Positions 656 through 60,722 of a stretch of 64,000 nucleotides of DNA are shown piece after piece; the first letter of the stretch is position 1, and each line of letters opens with the position of its first letter. The stretch lies in the NCBI GenBank assembly GCA_965223545.1, contig OZ245006.1:3360001-3424000 (forward strand). Reading direction: 5' to 3'. The position numbers and the translations under genes are program-made. This DNA is from Planctomycetota bacterium (GTDB lineage: Bacteria > Planctomycetota > UBA1135 > UBA2386). Below the pieces are notes generated by a model. The model had not been told where the DNA came from and ran no database searches. It saw nothing but the letters and a program-made list of their open reading frames with translations.

Positions 656-688
656 GGTGATGAGTTGGAGCCTGGCTCCGTACTTTCA
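656..688 (-). repeat. REP-like palindromic repeat, copy 1
   Basis: ggtgatgagttGGAGCCtGGCTCCgtactttca; 30/33 identical to 60690-60722; lies between convergent genes and includes the TGA of the minus-strand gene. Confidence 0.85.
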
Positions 689-26734: not shown

Positions 26735-26937
26735 GCGGAAGCGCGGGTGTCAGCGGGCGACCGCCGCGAACTCCGGGGCCAGCGCGTCTCGTGCAGATCG
26801 GCTTCGACTGCTGGGGACCCCGTACTGCGACGAAACAGACGAATCGCGGGGTTCCTGTCCTCCACCGGCGCGCGCTCGCGCTTCTGCCTCTTGCGGCCAA
26901 GTTGGCCGCGAGAGCCCAAATGGACGCGAGGCTACCG

Positions 26938-29199
26938 ATGCAGTTTGTGGACCGAGTCTCTTCGACCGTCGTCGCGGCGATCGCGCTGAGCGCGAGCCTT
27001 GCCGCCCTCCCCCAGCAGCCGCAACTCGATGCGCCTCGCGAAGATGCGCTGGACCGGCCGATTCCGTTGGACGCGTTCTCGGTGCCGATCCACACCGGCG
27101 AAGGAGAACAGGGCGTCGACTACGGCATCTGGGCGTCCGGCCCGGACTACAAGGTGTCGTTCCACGACGGCATGACGTTCTACCCCGTGCTGGGCGCGGA
27201 CGCGCCGCGCAACCTGCCGGTGCGCTGGGTGACGACGTCGGTGCGCGTCGGCGAACGCGAGATGGTGGGCGATGTGCCGCGCACGCACCACACCGACTGG
27301 CGCTTCGAGTACCGGCACGCCGGCTTCACCGAGGCATACGACGTGCGCGTCGACGGCGTCGAGCAGACGTTCGTGCTGCAACGCCGTCCGGATGGCGCAG
27401 GCGACCTCGTGATCCGCGGCCGGCTGGACACCGAACTGCGCACCGACCACTCACCGGCGCAGGTCGGCGAGCTGGTGCTGCGGGATGGCGGCGGTCAGCC
27501 CATCGTGCGCTACGGGCAGGCGCTGGCGTTCGACGCCGCCGGCCGCACGCGCGACGTGACCTCGCAGTTCGACGGCGAGGCCGTCGAGCTGCGTCTGTCG
27601 GCGGACTTCTTGGCGAACGCCACCTATCCACTCACCGTGGACCCGCTGCTGAGCACCGCGCTCGTGGCCGCCGGAGGAGGCCGCATCCTCGACATGTCGA
27701 TCGGGCGCAACGACCGCGAGGACGAGCTCATGGTCGGGTTCATCCGCGAAGTCTCGGCCGGCGACAACGACGTCTACGTGCACCTGATGAAAGACAACTG
27801 GGCGTTTACGACGCCGGTGTTCACGGACATCTCTTCGCAGTGGGCGCACTGGAGTATCGATCTGGCGTACGTCGCCGGCGCCCAAAGCTGGGTCGCGGCG
27901 TACAACCGTGGAGTAGGGGCCAGCCGTCAGATCCGCGTGCACTACCACGACGGCGGAGATTTCTCGATGAGCGCCGTCCTGCAGTTCCTCACCAATGCCG
28001 ACTACGCCAACGACATTTCGGTTGGAGGTAGCTCCGACACGTCGTCGACCGAGGCCCTGATCGCCTATCGCAAGGACGTAGGCATCTCCAACACAACCCG
28101 GTCCCAAGTCCGCGCGTTCGTCCTCGACGCAGCCGCGCGCCGTTCGGTCACCGAATTCCAGGTCAATGACACTAGTTCAATTCGGGATGCCGAGCACTGT
28201 CAAGTCAACGAGCGACGGCAGCTGGGCGGATTCCCCTGGTTCGTGACGTACCAAGAGTTGGACTACTACTACACGATCCCCGATTGGCGCGTCCACATCG
28301 CACGGGTGTGGGACGACGGTCGCACCGAGCGGGCGGAGATCGGTGATCCCGGCACCGCGGTGCACGATGTCGCGCCGCACATCGACGCCAGCCACGACCG
28401 TGCGCTGGTGGCCTTCCACCAGCGGCCCAACACCGGCACGCTTCCCGCGCTCTTCGCCAAGAACGTGTGGACCCAACGCGTCGATTGGCCGTTGGCGTCG
28501 GCGCAGCCCACGATCCGTGCTCCGCAGGAGCTCACTCGGCTCTCGGACGAGGTGCAGCTCGGCGGTGTCGCCTTCGATACGCTCACCAAGAGCCACTGGA
28601 CGATCGTCGCCGGCCAGTTCAGCGGCGTTCCGACGTTGAGGGTCTGGCGCGTGGGTCACGACGGTCTCTCCGCAGAAGCAGAGTTGATCAGCGGAGCAGC
28701 CAGCTACCAATTTGCGGCTGTCACGTTCGACGACGACGCACGGGAGTTCTCGATCGCGTTCCACGGCGGCGACAACGTGCTCGGCACCAAGATGGCCTAT
28801 CACAGGGGCGTCCACGCGACGGTGAGCGGCACCGGATGTGGGAGCGCCACGATGCGCCCGCGCGGAACGTCGCACTCCTATCTGCCCTGGTCGGGGACCT
28901 CGAACTTCGGGGTCACCCTCAACAACGCGCCCAGCGGCACAACCGCGGTGCTGATGTTCTCCGGTGCTCCAGCGACGGTCAGCCTGGCGAGCTTCGGGCT
29001 GCCGAACTGCAACCTGCTCCTCGATCCGGCGCAACTCACTGGCAGCATCAGCGTGCAGCTCTCGAGCGGGTTCTACGACCTGCCAATGCGGATCCCGAGC
29101 GGCGTTGCCGGCAACCTCAGCATGCAGTGGGTGTACTTCGATCCGGCGGCGACCGGCGGGCTGAGCTTGACCGAGCGGTTGAGCATTCTGGTCAAGTAG
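26938..29199 (+). CDS. Secreted hypothetical protein (paralogue A), beta-rich, with conserved C-terminal module
   Basis: Signal peptide; N-domain 'YGIWASGPDYKVSF...EAYDVRVDGVEQTFVL...YPLTVDP' shared with the next gene. Confidence 0.8.
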   Translation: MQFVDRVSSTVVAAIALSASLAALPQQPQLDAPREDALDRPIPLDAFSVPIHTGEGEQGVDYGIWASGPDYKVSFHDGMTFYPVLGADAPRNLPVRWVTTSVRVGEREMVGDVPRTHHTDWRFEYRHAGFTEAYDVRVDGVEQTFVLQRRPDGAGDLVIRGRLDTELRTDHSPAQVGELVLRDGGGQPIVRYGQALAFDAAGRTRDVTSQFDGEAVELRLSADFLANATYPLTVDPLLSTALVAAGGGRILDMSIGRNDREDELMVGFIREVSAGDNDVYVHLMKDNWAFTTPVFTDISSQWAHWSIDLAYVAGAQSWVAAYNRGVGASRQIRVHYHDGGDFSMSAVLQFLTNADYANDISVGGSSDTSSTEALIAYRKDVGISNTTRSQVRAFVLDAAARRSVTEFQVNDTSSIRDAEHCQVNERRQLGGFPWFVTYQELDYYYTIPDWRVHIARVWDDGRTERAEIGDPGTAVHDVAPHIDASHDRALVAFHQRPNTGTLPALFAKNVWTQRVDWPLASAQPTIRAPQELTRLSDEVQLGGVAFDTLTKSHWTIVAGQFSGVPTLRVWRVGHDGLSAEAELISGAASYQFAAVTFDDDAREFSIAFHGGDNVLGTKMAYHRGVHATVSGTGCGSATMRPRGTSHSYLPWSGTSNFGVTLNNAPSGTTAVLMFSGAPATVSLASFGLPNCNLLLDPAQLTGSISVQLSSGFYDLPMRIPSGVAGNLSMQWVYFDPAATGGLSLTERLSILVK

Positions 29200-29326: not shown

Positions 29327-31612
29327 ATGAAACCACTGACTCCCGCCCTGTTCGGCCTGCTGGCCGCGCTGTCCCCCGCTTTCGCCCAGGAGCCCGGCTC
29401 CGCCGCGCCAAGACCGTCACAACCGGCGGTCGACGGCGAGTGGATGCTGCCGCTGCACACCATGGCCGACGACCCCGAAGGAGGTCGCTACGGCACTTGG
29501 GCAGCGGGCCCCGACTACAAGGCAGCCTTCGACGACGGCTTCACCTTCTATCCGGTCCTCGGCGAGACCTATCCGGACAACCTGCCACTGCGTTGGCGGA
29601 CCGACACCATCACGGTGGGTGGCGCGGTGCTCGTCGACGGCAGTGCGCAGGCCCGGCGCAACGTCGACGAGTGGCGCTACGAGCTGCGCTACGGCGCGGT
29701 CACCGAGGCCTACGACATCCGCCGGGACGGCGTCGAGCAGACCTTCGTGCTGCAGCGCGACACGGGCGCCGGCGATGTCGTGGTGAGTGGAGTCATCGAC
29801 ACGCCCCTGCACAGCGCGAACGCGCTGGCCGCGGTACAGAGCCTCTCCTTCGTCGACGGCGAAGGTCGGCCGGTCATCCGCTACGGTGAAGCCCTTGCCT
29901 TCGACGCGCGCGACCGCCGCATCCCAGTGCAGACGAGCTTCGACGGCGAGCGGATCCAGCTGCGCCTCGATGGCGCGTGGCTCGCCGGCGCGACCTACCC
30001 GGTCACCATCGACCCGCTGACATCGTCGACGGTGATCGTCGCGGGTGGCGGATTCGTCAACTACCCCAACCTCGCGCGCGACGGCAGCAACAACCGGATC
30101 ATGGCGGTGTTCTCTCGGCCGAGCTCGGGATCGGACTACGACCTCTACGGCAAGCTGCTCAACGACGACCTGACGTTCGTGGCGTCGGCGTTCAGCGACG
30201 TCACCGCGAGCTGGAGCACGCGTTACGCCTCCGTGGCGTATGCGCAGAGCGCCGACAAGTGGATGATCGCGCTGGGTCGCGAGAACCTCCCCGGTGCCGG
30301 CGTCCGCGTCTACTTCCACTCGGGTGCCAGCACGTCGCTGAACACCGGCAACATCATCGCCACGACGCGCCCCAGCGGCTACCAGGACCAGCACCCGAGC
30401 ATCGGTGGCAACTCGACCGATACCGCGCTCGGGCGCGGCTACCTCGTGTTCCGTCGCGATCAAGGCAGCGGCTCTCCCAACGAGATGCACTCGCGGGTCT
30501 ACGGTGTGGTCGTCCAGCCGCAAACGGAGTCCTTCGGGGTGCAGAACAACCTGCACACCGCGCCGGGGTTCGGCCTCTACGACGCCGAGTGGCCGTGCGT
30601 CACGCGTGACAACGGCGGACTCGGCTCTTGGGCGGTGGCCTGGCAAGAGCAGGACCACACCTTCGGCCCCGGCGAGCCCTGGGTGATCGTCGGCCACCGC
30701 GTGGGTGGCCTCGGCCAGCTCAGCACGTCGACCGTCCTGGTCGACGGTGGCAGGGCGAATTCGCACAAGCTGCACCCGCAGGTTTCTGGAGCGGCCGGCC
30801 GCTACTTGCTCAGCTACGTGGAACGCGACAACGTGCTGCCGTTCAGCCACCTCACTGGTGACGCGTTCTACACCCAGCGCTTCGACTGGCCAAACGCAGC
30901 GGCCGCGCCGACGGTGATGGTGCCGCGTTCGGTCCTCGCGCCGGGCGGGAACGGCCTGCGCACCAATCTCACCAATCGGGCGATCGCGTTCGACTCCGAC
31001 ACCGAGTCGCACTGGGCGGTGACCTACCGCACCGTCGCCAACGACCTCTACATCGCGCGTCTCGGCATGTCCGGGCGCGTCGTCGAGAGCGGCTTGGTCT
31101 ACGCCGATCCGACCCTGGCCGCCGGCTCCGCCAGCGTGTGCTACAACCCCGTCGACCACGAGTTCGCGGTAGTGTTCGGCACCCAGCTGTTCAGCCGCCT
31201 CGAAGGCCGGCACTTCACCTATCAGCCAGCCGCGAACACCGTCTTCGGCACCGCTTGCGGTCCGCTCACCATCGCCGGCCAGAACCGCGGCAAGTTCGAG
31301 CAACCCTTCGCCGGCTCCGAGTTCTTCGAGCTGACGCTGAACGGCCTGCCCAACGCGCCTTCGGCGTTGTTCGTCAGCCTGGCGCAAGCACCCGGCCGCA
31401 TCCCGGTCGGCGGCTGCTCACTGCTGCTCGACCCCAACGCGAGCTTCCAGCACGTGCTGACGACGACCACCAACGTGCTCGGCCGACTCACCGTGCCGGT
31501 GCCGCTGCCCGACACCATCACCAACGCCGACGTATTCTGGCAGTTCTTCCAGTACGACGTCGCCCAAGCGCGGCTCCTCGCCTCCGAAGGCCTGCAAACC
31601 AGCATCAGGTGA
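29327..31612 (+). CDS. Secreted hypothetical protein (paralogue B)
   Basis: Signal peptide 'MKPLTPALFGLLAALSPAFA'; 'YGTWAAGPDYKAAF...EAYDIRRDGVEQTFVL...YPVTIDP'. Confidence 0.8.
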   Translation: MKPLTPALFGLLAALSPAFAQEPGSAAPRPSQPAVDGEWMLPLHTMADDPEGGRYGTWAAGPDYKAAFDDGFTFYPVLGETYPDNLPLRWRTDTITVGGAVLVDGSAQARRNVDEWRYELRYGAVTEAYDIRRDGVEQTFVLQRDTGAGDVVVSGVIDTPLHSANALAAVQSLSFVDGEGRPVIRYGEALAFDARDRRIPVQTSFDGERIQLRLDGAWLAGATYPVTIDPLTSSTVIVAGGGFVNYPNLARDGSNNRIMAVFSRPSSGSDYDLYGKLLNDDLTFVASAFSDVTASWSTRYASVAYAQSADKWMIALGRENLPGAGVRVYFHSGASTSLNTGNIIATTRPSGYQDQHPSIGGNSTDTALGRGYLVFRRDQGSGSPNEMHSRVYGVVVQPQTESFGVQNNLHTAPGFGLYDAEWPCVTRDNGGLGSWAVAWQEQDHTFGPGEPWVIVGHRVGGLGQLSTSTVLVDGGRANSHKLHPQVSGAAGRYLLSYVERDNVLPFSHLTGDAFYTQRFDWPNAAAAPTVMVPRSVLAPGGNGLRTNLTNRAIAFDSDTESHWAVTYRTVANDLYIARLGMSGRVVESGLVYADPTLAAGSASVCYNPVDHEFAVVFGTQLFSRLEGRHFTYQPAANTVFGTACGPLTIAGQNRGKFEQPFAGSEFFELTLNGLPNAPSALFVSLAQAPGRIPVGGCSLLLDPNASFQHVLTTTTNVLGRLTVPVPLPDTITNADVFWQFFQYDVAQARLLASEGLQTSIR

Positions 31613-31626
31613 AGGTACGGAGCCAG
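31610..31626 (+). repeat. REP-like repeat copy 2, left half (IS110 target)
   Basis: tgaagGTACGGAGCCAG matches the reverse complement of copies 1 and 3 up to the hairpin centre. Confidence 0.85.
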
Positions 31627-31870
31627 TCCTGCCCCGACAGATTTTGTCGGCCCTTCAGGGCAGGAAACTAGCCGCTGAGGAAGGGGGCGGGGAACGTGTG
31701 AGGGGCCCGGCAGCTACGCCCCCAATAGCCACTGGAGCACGTTTGCCCCAGAGCCAGTCTGGGTCCGAGTTGGCCATCCTTCACTGGTGAGGGGCACGTC
31801 GCCGTGCCCACTCCCGCAGGTCAGATTCGTTTGATCGCCGCCTCGGGCCGGGCCCACCACAACAAGGAGG
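31627..31870 (+). ncRNA. Putative bridge RNA region of the IS110 element
   Basis: Several stems (31627-34/31658-65, 31744-49/31791-96, 31813-16/31844-47); GAGCCAG 31751-57 equals target-left plus core; CAGGTCAG 31817-24 equals the element's right end plus core. RNA ends unknown. Confidence 0.7.
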
Positions 31871-31877
31871 ATGAAGT

Positions 31878-33260
31878 ATGGCTCGGAAGGGCAGAACGAG
31901 GAAGGGCAAGAAGCCCGCAGCGGAAGTATTACCAGTCGTGAAGCCCAACGCCGCCGGAATCGACATCGGCAGCCGCGAGCACTGGGTGTGCGCAGCAGCA
32001 CCCGACGGCAGTCGTCCGATCAAGCGATTCGGAACGACGACGCCCCAACTAGAGGCGCTCGCGGACTGGCTGGAGGAGCTCGGAGTGCGATCCGTCGCGA
32101 TGGAGAGCACCTATGTCTACTGGATTCCCGTCTACGAGCTACTCGAGTCGAGAGGCTTCGAGGTCATCCTCGCGAATGCCCGCGAGGTGAAGAACGTGCC
32201 GGGCCGCTCCAAGTCCGATGCCAGCGATTGCAGTTGGCTGCAGAAGCTACACACCTATGGCCTCATTCGCGCTTCGTTCCGGCCTCCGAAGGACATCTGT
32301 GCGTTGCGGACCCTGCAACGCCATGCCGCGTCTTTGATCGCGCAGCGCACGCGCCACACGCAGTTGATGCAGCGGTCACTGGATCAGATGAACGTGGCGA
32401 TCCATCGCGCGGTAACGGACATCACCGGCAAGACCGGCCTCGCGATCATCCGCGCGATTCTCGCTGGTGAACGCGACCCTCGAGCGCTCGCCAGACTGCG
32501 TGATCCGCGCTGCAAGATCTCCGAGAAGGAGCTCGCGGATCACTTGCAAGGGACCTGGATCGAGGAGCACATCTTCACTCTCGCTTCGGGCTTGCGGATG
32601 CTCGAGCACACCGACCACGAGATCGAGTCGGTCGAGAAGCGATTGATGGCGATGATCGAGGACCTGCAACCGGAGGAAGCCAAGACGGCCGACGTCCCCG
32701 AGCATCCAGACCCCCGCAAGGAGAGGAGCATCCGAACGAAGGGCGGCCGGGAGCTTCGCGATGCCCTCTGCCGGCTCGTCGGGTGTGATCTCACGCGAAT
32801 CGACGGTATCAGCCCGAGCACGGCCATGATCGTGCTCACCGAGGTCGGCTACGACCTCGATGCTTTCCCGACCGAGAAGCACTTCGTCTCCTGGCTACGC
32901 CTGTGCCCACGTCAAGCCGTCTCGGGTGGAAAGCGCATCAAGAAGCACCGCAACAACATCGCGGTCAGCAGGATCGCCACGGTCCTCCGGATGGCCGCCC
33001 TGTCCCTCCAACGTACTCAGACAGCTCTCGGCGCACACTTCCGCAAGATCGCCCGCGCGAAGGACGGCAACGTCGCCATCTTTGCCATCGCCCGCAAACT
33101 GGCCCTGCTCATCTACCGCATGCTGAAGTTCGGCCAGGACTACGTAGACGAAGGCGCCAAGGCCTACGAGGAGCGCTTCACCCAGCGACGCATCGTCGGA
33201 CTCCGACAGAACGCTAAATCCCTCGGGTACAAGCTCATACCGATCGTCGAGGCTGGGTGA
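31878..33260 (+). CDS. IS110 family DEDD transposase/recombinase
   Basis: RBS AAGGAGG; 'GIDIG', 'AMES', 'KSDASD'; C-terminal domain 'IDGIS...FVSWLRLCP...SGG'; intact 460 aa. Confidence 0.96.
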   Translation: MARKGRTRKGKKPAAEVLPVVKPNAAGIDIGSREHWVCAAAPDGSRPIKRFGTTTPQLEALADWLEELGVRSVAMESTYVYWIPVYELLESRGFEVILANAREVKNVPGRSKSDASDCSWLQKLHTYGLIRASFRPPKDICALRTLQRHAASLIAQRTRHTQLMQRSLDQMNVAIHRAVTDITGKTGLAIIRAILAGERDPRALARLRDPRCKISEKELADHLQGTWIEEHIFTLASGLRMLEHTDHEIESVEKRLMAMIEDLQPEEAKTADVPEHPDPRKERSIRTKGGRELRDALCRLVGCDLTRIDGISPSTAMIVLTEVGYDLDAFPTEKHFVSWLRLCPRQAVSGGKRIKKHRNNIAVSRIATVLRMAALSLQRTQTALGAHFRKIARAKDGNVAIFAIARKLALLIYRMLKFGQDYVDEGAKAYEERFTQRRIVGLRQNAKSLGYKLIPIVEAG

Positions 33261-33272
33261 GTTTCAGGTCAG

Positions 33273-33286
33273 GCTCCGTACTCACC
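33273..33286 (+). repeat. REP-like repeat copy 2, right half
   Basis: GCTCCGTACTCACC completes the hairpin and contains the stop of the convergent gene. Confidence 0.85.
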
Positions 33287-34466
33287 AGGAGCGTGCTGCC
33301 AGCAGCTCGATCAGGCGGCCGATGCGCGTGCGCGTTGCCTCGTCCACGAGGGGGCGCGCCGCGTAGGTCTGCAGCGCGGTGACGTGGCGCCGGTCGCCGT
33401 AGGTGGCGATGCGCTCCAGACACTCTTCGACGATGTGCGGACTGGCGCGCGTCTCGAGCAAGCCGACGAAACCATCGGCCGCGGCGGCATAGGCTTCCTT
33501 GCCGACCCCGTGGCCGAGACCCCAGCGGGCGCGCTCGGAGACGTTGGGATCCGCGGCGGCAAGAGCGTCGACGAGCACACCGACAACTGCCGGCGACTTG
33601 TCTCGCAAGGTGCTCAGACCGAAGTAGATCGCGTCGTGCCGAGTTTCGGGTGCCGCGCTCAAGGCGAGCAGACGCTGCTCGACGCGGGGTCCGACCCGCG
33701 CACCCCAGAGTCCCGACAGTGACCCTTCGCGCACGCTCTCGTCGGCGTCGTCGAGCAGCGAGAACACGACGTCATCGATGGCACCATCCAGCGCACCGTC
33801 GTGGAACATCATCAGGATGTGACTCATCGACTTGCGCACCTCGGCGGCCGGGTCACGGGCGAGCGCCACCAACCGTGCGCCGTCTTCGGGCCGCACTTCG
33901 GTGTTCATCAAGGCATACAGCGCTGCGGCGCGCACCTCCGCGTCGCCGTGCTCCAGCAGTGGCCGCACCAACGGGCGCATGGCAGCCTTGTCGTAGTCGA
34001 GCTTGCGCAGTCCCGCGAGCGCGCGCAGCGCGGCCTGCATCGCCACCGGGTCGTCGCCGCCCAACGCGCGCCGGATCGCCTCGAGGGCCGCTTGCCGTGC
34101 GGCGGGGTCCGCGGTTTGCAGCGCGGCCTCGCGCCACTCCCGGATGAGCTCGGCGCGCCGCCGCATGCGCGCGCACTCCGCCTCGCGCTGCGCTGCGGCA
34201 GCCGAGGACTCCTGCGCGCCGGCAACGGTCTTCGTCCGATCCGGTACTGCCCGGGCCTGCTCCAGCTGCACGCGCAGCTGCGCCACCTCGGCTTGCAGCT
34301 GTTCGAACGCCGCGCGTTCTGCGGGCTCCTGTTGAATCGGGGGCGCACTCACCCGGGACGCGGTGCGCCGCCCGATCTCGAAAGCGGCGACGCTGCACAC
34401 CGCGACTGCGGCGAGCCACGCCCAGCGCGCCGCACCGGACTCTCGCCCTGTTGTCATTACATGCAT
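33282..34466 (-). CDS. Membrane-anchored HEAT-repeat protein
   Basis: N-terminal TM and coiled coil; repeats 'D.D.EVR.AA..AL'; TGATG overlap with the upstream gene. Confidence 0.8.
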   Translation of the reverse strand: MHVMTTGRESGAARWAWLAAVAVCSVAAFEIGRRTASRVSAPPIQQEPAERAAFEQLQAEVAQLRVQLEQARAVPDRTKTVAGAQESSAAAAQREAECARMRRRAELIREWREAALQTADPAARQAALEAIRRALGGDDPVAMQAALRALAGLRKLDYDKAAMRPLVRPLLEHGDAEVRAAALYALMNTEVRPEDGARLVALARDPAAEVRKSMSHILMMFHDGALDGAIDDVVFSLLDDADESVREGSLSGLWGARVGPRVEQRLLALSAAPETRHDAIYFGLSTLRDKSPAVVGVLVDALAAADPNVSERARWGLGHGVGKEAYAAAADGFVGLLETRASPHIVEECLERIATYGDRRHVTALQTYAARPLVDEATRTRIGRLIELLAARSW

Positions 34467-35809
34467 CACGATTTGCGTAAGTGCGACAGCGCGCGCTCCA
34501 GGATCGGATCGCGCTTCTCGAGCTCGGCGGGGTCGACCTCGACCGACACATCGGGCGCGATGCCGACCCCTTCGAAGCAAGTGCCGTCAGGCAACAGCGC
34601 CTGCCAAGACGGCACATTGAGGACGACGTCGTTGGACAACCGGTGCGGCTTGGGGTTGCCGCTGCTGCCGAAGGTCCGTTGGCCGATCACCGTGCAGCCC
34701 TCCACCTGCTTCATCATCAAGACGAACGCCTCGTTGCTGCTCATCACGTAGCGGCTCACCAACAGCGCGACCGGGATCCGGAGACGCCGGGCATCGGTGT
34801 TGCCGCTAATGCTCCGCTCGCGCACCGGGCCGAAGCCGTCCGGCCCCTTGGCGATGCGGTAGCGGTTCTTGGCGTAGACCCGCGCACCCTCGACGAACCA
34901 CGCGGCAACCTGCCGCGCGATCCCCTCGTCGCCGCCGGAGTTGGCACGCACGTCCAACACCAGCGCGCGCGAACCGCTCTCCGCGATCTGCGCCAACAGC
35001 TCGAACAAGAGCTGCTGGTTCAGGGAGCGCGACCAACTGCCGATCATCAGATAGGCGATGTCGTCCTCGGTGCGCCCAACGGCCAAACCGCGCGCCGGCT
35101 CGCGCAACCGCACGAGATAGCGCTGCAATCCCGACGGCCGCACCAGAGGATCGACGGCGCGGCTAGCGGTACCGACCTGGGCTCCACCGACGCTCAGAGT
35201 CAGGTGCAAGTCCTGCGCCTCGGCCAGCAGGGCGGCCACCGCGCGCACCCAGCCCTGATCGGTACGCGCGCCGTGAATCGCCGCGCGGTGCTCGCCAAAC
35301 CGGTCCCCCCAAGCCACGTCGAGGCGGTCGTAGTACGAATACGCTGACTCGAGCACCGCCTGCACTTCGTCCAGGGCCCGTGCGTTGCGCTGTTCTTGCT
35401 CGGCGGGCGGCCGCAGCTCTGCCGGCAGCGTCGCGAACTGCCAAGGTGCCGGACGGAGCGCGACTCCCTTGCCGCTGCGAAAGTTGGTCGCCGCTGGACA
35501 GTTCAAGGACAGGCGATAGCTGCGTCCCGGCTCCAACGTCACCGGTAGAACGCAGGTCTTGGAGTCCTTCCAATACGGGCGCTTGCCGTCGGTCACCGGC
35601 GGGAACGCCGGGCCGCCGCCGCAGAACGAGAAGCCGCCGGTGCTCATCGGCCGGTCGAAGACCACGATCAGCTCGGCCACCCCAGCCGCGTCGACCTCGA
35701 CGTCGCCGTCCGCGGGCGTCCGCTGGACGATGGTCGGTGGTTCTTGGGCCACACCGAGTGCCGTCGTGAGCAGAGCCATTGCCCACGGCCGAAACGGTTT
35801 CCGCGTCAT
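34466..35809 (-). CDS. S41 family peptidase with N-terminal Ig-like domain
   Basis: RBS AGGAGG; 'VVFDRPM'; 'LDVRANSGG', 'SSNEAF', 'IGQRTFG', 'EGVGIAPD'. Confidence 0.9.
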   Translation of the reverse strand: MTRKPFRPWAMALLTTALGVAQEPPTIVQRTPADGDVEVDAAGVAELIVVFDRPMSTGGFSFCGGGPAFPPVTDGKRPYWKDSKTCVLPVTLEPGRSYRLSLNCPAATNFRSGKGVALRPAPWQFATLPAELRPPAEQEQRNARALDEVQAVLESAYSYYDRLDVAWGDRFGEHRAAIHGARTDQGWVRAVAALLAEAQDLHLTLSVGGAQVGTASRAVDPLVRPSGLQRYLVRLREPARGLAVGRTEDDIAYLMIGSWSRSLNQQLLFELLAQIAESGSRALVLDVRANSGGDEGIARQVAAWFVEGARVYAKNRYRIAKGPDGFGPVRERSISGNTDARRLRIPVALLVSRYVMSSNEAFVLMMKQVEGCTVIGQRTFGSSGNPKPHRLSNDVVLNVPSWQALLPDGTCFEGVGIAPDVSVEVDPAELEKRDPILERALSHLRKS

Positions 35810-60690: not shown

Positions 60691-60722
60691 GTGATGAATC
60701 GGAGCCTGGCTCCGTACGTTCA
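60690..60722 (-). repeat. REP-like palindromic repeat, copy 3
   Basis: ggtgatgaatcGGAGCCtGGCTCCgtacgttca fills the entire gap between two convergent stops. Confidence 0.85.

Follow-up and report, generated by a model that had tools for sequence, protein, structure and literature searches.

It is well established that insertion sequences of the IS110 family can insert into repetitive extragenic palindromes (REPs; PMC11208160, PMC1525189). Copying-out or excision of a single strand has been reported for IS621 and CazIS110-1, and whether the intermediates of IS110 elements are single- or double-stranded is debated in papers of 2025-2026. Here we describe an IS110 element in a 64,000 bp stretch (the window) of the genome of a Planctomycetota bacterium (contig C1 of assembly G000, 8.07 Mb, 70% G+C). 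The element (31627..33272, + strand) is 1646 bp long including one AG core (33271-33272), the other AG being at 31625-31626, and it is inserted in the loop of a dispersed hairpin repeat. Repeat targeting by IS110 elements is already known from IS621, ISPpu9 and ISPpu10, and the window insertion is another clean case of this habit; the part that was not found in print is the architecture of the left end. In the literature covered, from which most subscription journals and the bioRxiv supplements were missing, neither a left end that folds back, nor the guide layout described below, nor an IS110 element in terminal inverted repeats (TIRs) of the kind discussed below was found. Comparison of the element with its relatives leads us to propose, with a probability of roughly 0.45, that in a widespread IS110 clade with recombinases of about 450 aa the donor is a folded single antisense strand that would not require second-strand synthesis, and that one branch of this clade is guide-programmed against the TIRYT-like repeats of its host and has followed their change.

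The relatives were collected from genome contigs (75 loci) and from a metagenome motif scan (80 listed of at least 121 stretches). In numbers, 157 loci were examined, 95 had the motif and 82 a transposase behind it; 84 passed the anchors, 75 of them were distinct and 62 had enough upstream DNA. The non-coding left end of the window element is predicted to encode a bridge-like RNA (31702..31856, +, ends approximate). The consensus fold of 53 sequences contains two internal loops, and 18 of its 33 pairs show compensatory changes; as a prediction, this is the structured two-loop RNA in the non-coding end that characterizes bridge RNAs. Rfam returned no relevant match to the region (one chance match), and a viral scan with the RNA motif gave one chance match.

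The 3' side of loop 1 carries the predicted target guide (31751..31757, +), five variable nucleotides followed by AG, which is identical to the left flank of the element. Among the 62 relatives, 49 had at least 5 of 6 matching bases plus AG upstream, in comparison with 3.6 in permuted sets (maximum 10 in 1000; related sequences inflate the z values of all guide tests); the matches represented 42 distinct guides and lay mostly 124-136 nt away. On the 5' side of the same loop (31724..31735, +), nucleotides 31727-31729 may, tentatively, pair with the first 3 nt of the right flank: the match was 75/212 in the best of 18 registers, against 50.7 ± 6.1, with a z value of 3.5 in a second form of the test. 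No match of this side further upstream of the target was found. In loop 2, whose 5' side (31776..31787, +) is unpaired in the consensus fold, the donor guide (31817..31824, +) is identical to the last 8 nt of the element (33265-33272). The donor guide changes along with the right end in L056, L064 and L204; because the donor end varies little, this covariation test rests on few elements. Guides that covary with the left target and with the left donor are thus present, as in bridge RNAs. A search for a standard right-donor guide, to positions +2 to +8, was negative. In 39 of 51 cases, where 24 were expected, the nucleotide that follows the target guide is the same as donor +1, with which the element begins; a handshake base would behave in this way. 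We are highly confident that the two-loop RNA predicted from the left end reads the target, the 7-nt guide matching the left flank and probably 3 more nucleotides reading the right flank. It also seems probable that the loops are arranged as in IS621 but turned round: the CT core would be on the strand opposite to the transposase, each long guide on the 3' side of its loop, and the handshake base after the target guide.

The left end itself was compared in 52 elements whose left junction could be placed (L140 and L167 were dropped as ambiguous, L174 and L193 as too close). In the ~450-aa clade the order of parts was the core, about 8 nt, a G+C-rich hairpin, a segment of 7-8 nt, about 6 nt, and a 6-bp inverted copy of the subterminal bases of the right end. 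A hairpin stem of at least 4 bp was present in 51 of the 52 elements, in comparison with 21% of shuffled sequences. The stem started at +8 to +10 in 49 of 51, and the start of the segment ranged from +21 to +34. The hairpin of the window element (31634..31650) starts at +8/+9 from the core; its structure is kept among the relatives, its sequence and length are not. The left subterminal inverted repeat (31664..31669, +), 38 nt inside the left end, is the reverse complement of the right one (33260..33265, +), which is 7 nt from the right end, and the two show compensatory changes in relatives. The segment (31650..31657, + in the window element) repeats the sequence that the donor loop of the RNA has on its 5' side, here in 6 of 8 bases, and pairing with the RNA would be possible for the antisense strand of the segment. 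In 51 elements, 283 of 357 bases were identical when the segment was read at offset 6 from the inverted repeat, against 229 ± 5.7, and six other offsets gave no excess. Changes at the same site of RNA and DNA numbered 19 in 21 disjoint nearest pairs, as compared with 6.8 (maximum 15 in 10000). In a distant hold-out set (33-47% identity; 18 usable of 66 tried, 16 of them with the stem; several elements had been seen by eye beforehand and some are related) segment identity was 59/128 versus 36.5 ± 5.6.

Since both sides of loop 2 equal sense DNA, at places that would face each other if the strand folded back, both would be complementary to the antisense strand. In the proposed scheme the element would be copied out as an antisense single strand carrying the CT core. 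At its junction the strand would fold back on itself, and the subterminal inverted repeats and the hairpin would close a bubble; the RNA donor loop would pair with both sides of this bubble, and no second strand would be needed for donor recognition. In predicted folds the inverted-repeat stem closed in all nine junctions folded. A different explanation of the segment, to which we give a little less than an even chance, is that the RNA pairs with it in duplex DNA, in a second R-loop and perhaps with the hairpin extruded, or that the identity has a role in regulation, at the level of the RNA or of the promoter, and none in donor recognition. The subterminal inverted repeats of IS1111 elements need not pair mutually, and the mismatches of the segment (9 wobble-compatible and 7 incompatible transitions) show no clear wobble bias, both of which would suit pairing in the duplex; the scan, which found no sigma-70-like promoter site, is counted on the same side. 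What speaks for the fold-back instead is the 8-versus-8 register kept on both sides of a hairpin of variable length, together with the observation that no RNA column pairs with the 5' side of the donor loop: no complementary partner within the RNA accounts for the shared changes. The fold-back donor, if conserved as proposed, gives a sharp and cheap prediction in the debate on the strandedness of the intermediates, and cultured carriers of the clade exist (plasmids of Nostoc sp. C052 and Paraburkholderia sabiae). If it is true, surveys and editors that assume a short duplex donor (25-nt windows, 10.64898/2026.10.21.760802) could misread this clade or fail with it.

Joining 31626 to 33273 restores the 17-nt core of the target repeat, which occurs exactly at 667-683 and 60701-60717 on the minus strand; in this, and in the coordinates and sequence of the insertion, a preliminary description of the window proved accurate. 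The left half of the repeat (31610..31626, +) includes the TGA stop of the left gene, a GTAC tag (31615-31618) and the guide-matched 7-mer with the AG core (31620-31626), and the right half (33273..33284, +) ends in the stop codon of the right gene, which is on the minus strand. Both empty copies in the window (657..688 and 60691..60722, minus strand) lie between convergent genes and are predicted to fold into a 5-6 bp stem with a 3-nt CAG loop. The element was thus correctly placed in the hairpin apex by the preliminary description, but not at an exact apex with a 1-nt loop; because a loop of 1 nt cannot fold, the loop is CAG, and the element sits in it. Empty exact copies of the 17-mer number 79 in the genome (36 + 43), in comparison with 0.0002 expected from a 4th-order Markov model, and within the window 0.32 chance matches would be expected even if 3 mismatches were allowed. 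The central 10-mer has 104 empty sites, 88 of which are copies of the repeat. The two vacant targets previously pointed out near the element are empty indeed; in the whole genome there are not two such copies but about 88.

A genome BLAST search retrieved 23 full-length copies of the element, 99.2-100% identical, and one fragment of 114 nt. All 23 had ends equivalent to 31627 and 33272, and they fell into six sequence variants (17 copies of 1645 bp and 6 of 1646 bp). Halves of the repeat flank both sides of 22 copies, and rebuilding the empty sites restored the repeat in the same proportion (22/23). Neither deviating ends nor a scatter over unrelated sites was seen, and repeat targeting as previously suggested is borne out; that the targeting can be read from the guide RNA of the left end is a point that had been missed. 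CAG is common to both ends of the element, and AG is the core kept in relatives. The element has very probably been spreading in this genome recently by RNA-guided recombination at the AG core. The reverse assignment, in which the repeat halves would be the element's own ends (31610-33286) and the empty repeats its footprints, draws on the similarity among copies, which often extends about 17 nt past the left core and up to 14 nt past the right. It has been largely refuted and we regard it as highly improbable: the flanks differ from copy to copy as the empty repeats differ from one another, whereas the element is constant; the architecture of the ends is shared by relatives that lie between unrelated flanks; and related repeats bracket Y1 transposase genes in relatives that lack this element.

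There are 1809 other sites with the 7-mer of the target guide, none of which carries a full copy; a rough gene finder (5898 genes, 88% coding), the source of all gene contexts given here, places 251 of these sites between genes. Sequences of a sister repeat, one base off the guide, were occupied at 0 of 60 sites versus 22 of 110 for the repeat (Fisher p 5e-5). Taken together, the 7-nt and the 3-nt reading would, in our firm opinion, almost define the repeat in this genome. One could suppose that the target hairpin, or a Y1 protein bound to it, is the main determinant and that the RNA guide only checks the site, like the stem-loop proposed to act as an extra gate for ISPpu10 (10.64898/2026.03.19.712850). 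All 22 regular insertions are in hairpins, and a guide of 7 nt is by itself too common to account for this. Two results make such a gate unlikely as the main determinant: the hairpins of the sister repeat are unused, and of the 39 relatives for which both flanks were available only two, the window element and L133, have a palindromic target (sum 52 versus 48 permuted), the others being at tRNA-like 3' ends and at unrelated sites. By the same figures, hairpin targets as a trait of the whole family were rejected. Even less probable is that the element inserts at any 7-mer match and that selection leaves only the copies in harmless repeats. The intergenic position of all 23 copies would agree with this, but 251 intergenic 7-mer sites outside the repeat are unused, and the identity of the copies, 99.2-100%, left selection little time to remove others.

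Two groups of relatives were noted in this connection. In L148, L167, L176, L197 and L130 the insertion is at a tRNA-like 3' end, with bases restoring that end (by eye). A single guide is common to L138, L143, L146, L161, L162, L190 and L202, and conservation extends further into their left flank, which may be where another mobile element ends.

Ten of 338 other genomes of the order contained a relative at E <1e-60. In the closest, G303 (same family, other genus), the element is 78% identical. The repeat exists as an A-variant and a T-variant, whose numbers are 82 and 0 in the present genome and 0 and 62 in G303; a third genome has neither. In G303 the T-variant borders 3 of 4 right ends, the guide carries the same change with the 5' side of the loop changing in step, and its Y1 genes have the T-variant, or a form close to it, on their flanks. 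These observations strongly suggest that the guide can be retargeted and that it has kept pace with the variant of the repeat in its host lineage. Among 60 relatives returned by a search there was no genome of the same genus, and the 17-mer was found once each in 2 of the 60.

The repeat is a short intergenic high-copy palindrome, often in inverted doublets, and 82 of its 88 empty copies are outside predicted genes. On the 5' side of the hairpin it carries a conserved GTAC tag (87-95% at each position) in place of the GTAG/GTGG of canonical REPs. Two inverted copies, both occupied by the element, bracket a Y1 transposase gene of 333 aa (C1:3914532-3915530), and a second Y1 gene at C1:1729868 is bracketed by the sister repeat. 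Both proteins score below the cut-off of 80 bits of the REP-associated tyrosine transposase (RAYT) model NF047646 (63.5 and 57.2 bits); the first has a weak C-terminal helix-turn-helix match and resembles Y1 + DnaA_C clusters. At 22 loci examined in relatives, most homologous Y1 genes stand between inverted repeats of their own, which carry a related motif; the GGGGWSAS motif was present in one of the 22 (L258), the others having a TAC[GC]G-type motif or none. A Y1 core with a C-terminal helix-turn-helix between inverted repeats is the arrangement of TIRtrons/TIRYT, and on these features the repeat is classed as an inverted repeat of a TIRYT-like Y1 gene and not as a GT[AG]G REP. The REP-like nature previously assigned to the target thus holds for the dispersed intergenic palindrome and fails for the canonical tag. 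The link between repeat and Y1 gene is an association, and the Y1 enzyme may spread the repeat. The element would in this sense be a parasite of a parasite, its guide following the repeat family of a TIRYT-like gene of which both bracketing repeats are occupied here.

The two inverted copies around the Y1 gene (C1:3912823-3917190) have their right ends inward. Double occupancy would arise there by chance in ~4% at 20% occupancy and was noticed post hoc; the inverted pair may disable or invert the Y1 unit. A second multi-copy Y1 family was seen as 12 weaker matches, L005 (C1:1353510-1356680) and 11 similar loci; the Y1 gene in L005 adjoins a reverse-transcriptase frame of group II intron type.

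Several observations weigh against the reading or parts of it. With regard to the fold-back donor, in the window element the segment match is 6/8 and one base off the usual spacing, and its predicted fold takes an alternative stem inside the left end; the lack of wobble bias mentioned above belongs here too. The right-flank guide is weak across the family, being the best of 18 registers among related sequences. Guide pairing and hairpin symmetry are not separable within this genome, since the non-repeat sites of the 10-mer, 0 of 16 of them used, give p 0.07 (p 0.58 for the 5 intergenic ones), and the tracking of the repeat by the guide is based on a single contrast between two lineages. The fold-back donor also has against it that, at one of its junctions, CazIS110-1 shows a preference for double-stranded donor DNA. 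Finally, neither a joint skipping the element at 31626/33273 was found in the contigs of 4 of 23 listed runs (X4-X7), nor an end-to-end joint of a circle in the assembly or in the same contigs, which lose rare forms. The empty allele of the window site is thus a reconstruction from the flanks and was never observed. X5-X7 seem to be the same strain because junctions of other copies of this genome occur there. In X4, pieces over both junctions extend only 13 and 21 letters across, below the bridging limit. The summed depth of X4 was 841 on the element and ~40-60 beside it, which agrees with many copies but is not a copy number, and the depth of the two element variants was 641:223 versus 17:6 in the assembly.

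All 23 copies are intergenic, and 13 of them lie between convergent genes, in comparison with a background of 17% (p 3e-5). The 88 empty repeats are distributed similarly (56 between convergent genes, 25 tandem, 1 divergent, 6 inside predicted genes; Fisher p 0.63 for 13/23 versus 56/88), with a gene end within 22 nt for 55 of them. The location of the repeats in intergenic DNA, mostly at the 3' ends of genes, is the reason why genes are spared: the safe harbour proposed in the preliminary description is real in its effect, and this effect is inherited from where the repeats lie. With regard to replichore, the figures were 11/23 for the copies versus 55/82. There are 23 repeat pairs at most 150 bp apart, 17 of them inverted. 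Both repeats of a doublet were occupied in one of the 23 pairs, and occupancy was 9/46 for paired versus 13/64 for single sites; a raised double occupancy of doublets was therefore rejected. The doublet with both repeats occupied (C1:1714943-1718279) includes a variant with a flipped loop, and its occupation shows that a GTAC tag on the left is not required. Repeats nested at or beside the apex of another repeat were seen at C1:4330705-4332401, 1015110, 4241087-4241223 and 5177897-5177912, with the left half and sometimes also the right half doubled, both with and without the element.

One irregular copy (C1:4826231-4829693) belongs to an exact tandem duplication that comprises the element and 173 bp of host DNA; the joint is at the right end, and the breakpoint, of the half-match type, lies behind an AG. 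It resembles LD-only tandem duplications or half-match recombination (10.64898/2026.08.31.748434; 10.64898/2026.08.14.744561), but is a single case and possibly an assembly error. An internally deleted copy (C1:988112-988240), in which 114 nt of the transposase start are fused to the right end, is at a non-repeat site. Three repeats between convergent genes (C1:6469830, 6715175 and 7558360) have a 5-bp insert equal to the last five bases of the element, likely footprints, to judge from these bases, of off-register excision at the inner AG. In G303, a repeat (L305, C66:997-1009) has a 14-bp remnant from the right end of the element only.

The recombinase (460 aa, 31878..33260, +) has the domains PF01548 and PF02371 and matches NF033542 with 248 bits (cut-off 140). 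It can be aligned to IS621 (best match among solved structures, E 7.5e-11), and the motifs D29, E76, D114, D117 and S349 are present. By these motifs it is intact, and the element is of the IS110 family; it likewise has a short core at both junctions, a specific target and no terminal inverted repeats. Its lineage, as far as sequence tells, is far from that of IS621. Both neighbouring genes had been described as intact. The left gene (29327..31612, +; no Pfam family, look-alikes mostly in Planctomycetota) is: it ends at TGA 31610-31612, is as long as its paralogues, and a 63% paralogue terminates at the same residue. The right gene, for a HEAT-repeat protein (33282..34544, minus strand, start uncertain), is open to its stop at 33282-33284 and has no paralogue for comparison. 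The left gene and its neighbour (26914-29199 and 29327-31612) are tandem paralogues of ~760 aa that look secreted and have no Pfam family; the genome holds at least 11 paralogues.

The target repeat is closest to the TIRtrons/TIRYT (Di Nocera 2013, PMC3733652), to TnpA-Y1 subclass 2.1 (Quentin 2018, PMC6006769) and to RAYT group 1 (Bertels 2017, PMC5581495), in which, as here, a Y1 protein with a C-terminal helix-turn-helix is encoded between inverted repeats; these are partly self-complementary and also occur dispersed, as single copies and as dimers. It differs from the published TIRs, which have the GGGGWSAS motif (PMC3733652, PMC6006769), by its GTAC tag and 5-6 bp hairpin; the string GTAC does not occur in the main text of either paper. 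The nearly fixed position in a dispersed intergenic palindrome, with a 2-bp repeat at the insertion point, is shared with ISPpu9, ISPpu10, ISPa11 and ISRm19 in REPs (PMC1525189; 10.64898/2026.03.19.712850). Here the insertion point is the symmetry axis within the loop, while the stem-loop of ISPpu10 is in a 5' extension of the target (10.64898/2026.03.19.712850) and the host group is another one; unlike those four elements, the present clade does not generally use hairpin targets (2/39). The non-coding end, 251 nt on the left and 12 nt on the right, is upstream of the transposase as in the IS110 group. The order of the matches seems, tentatively, to be the reverse of that expected for this group, with the top-strand match 5' of the bottom-strand match as in the IS1111-type seekRNAs (Siddiquee 2024, PMC11187229), and 6-bp covarying subterminal inverted repeats are likewise present. 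From the IS1111-type elements (PMC11187229) it is set apart by the IS110-type position of the RNA. ISAzo22 and ISCARN20 (Durrant Supplementary Table 1) have motifs of the clade in common by eye, not from an alignment, and are a lead only. With IS621 (Durrant 2024, PMC11208160) the element shares the DEDD and Tnp domains, the long left and short right end, the two-loop RNA, the 2-nt core, the REP-like target and the handshake-like base. It differs from it in the length of the recombinase (460 versus 328 aa), in the core, AG on the coding strand, in the long guides at the 3' sides of the loops, in having no guide for the donor bases next to the left-end core, and in the 6-bp inverted repeats which, 7 and 38 nt from the ends, surround a hairpin.

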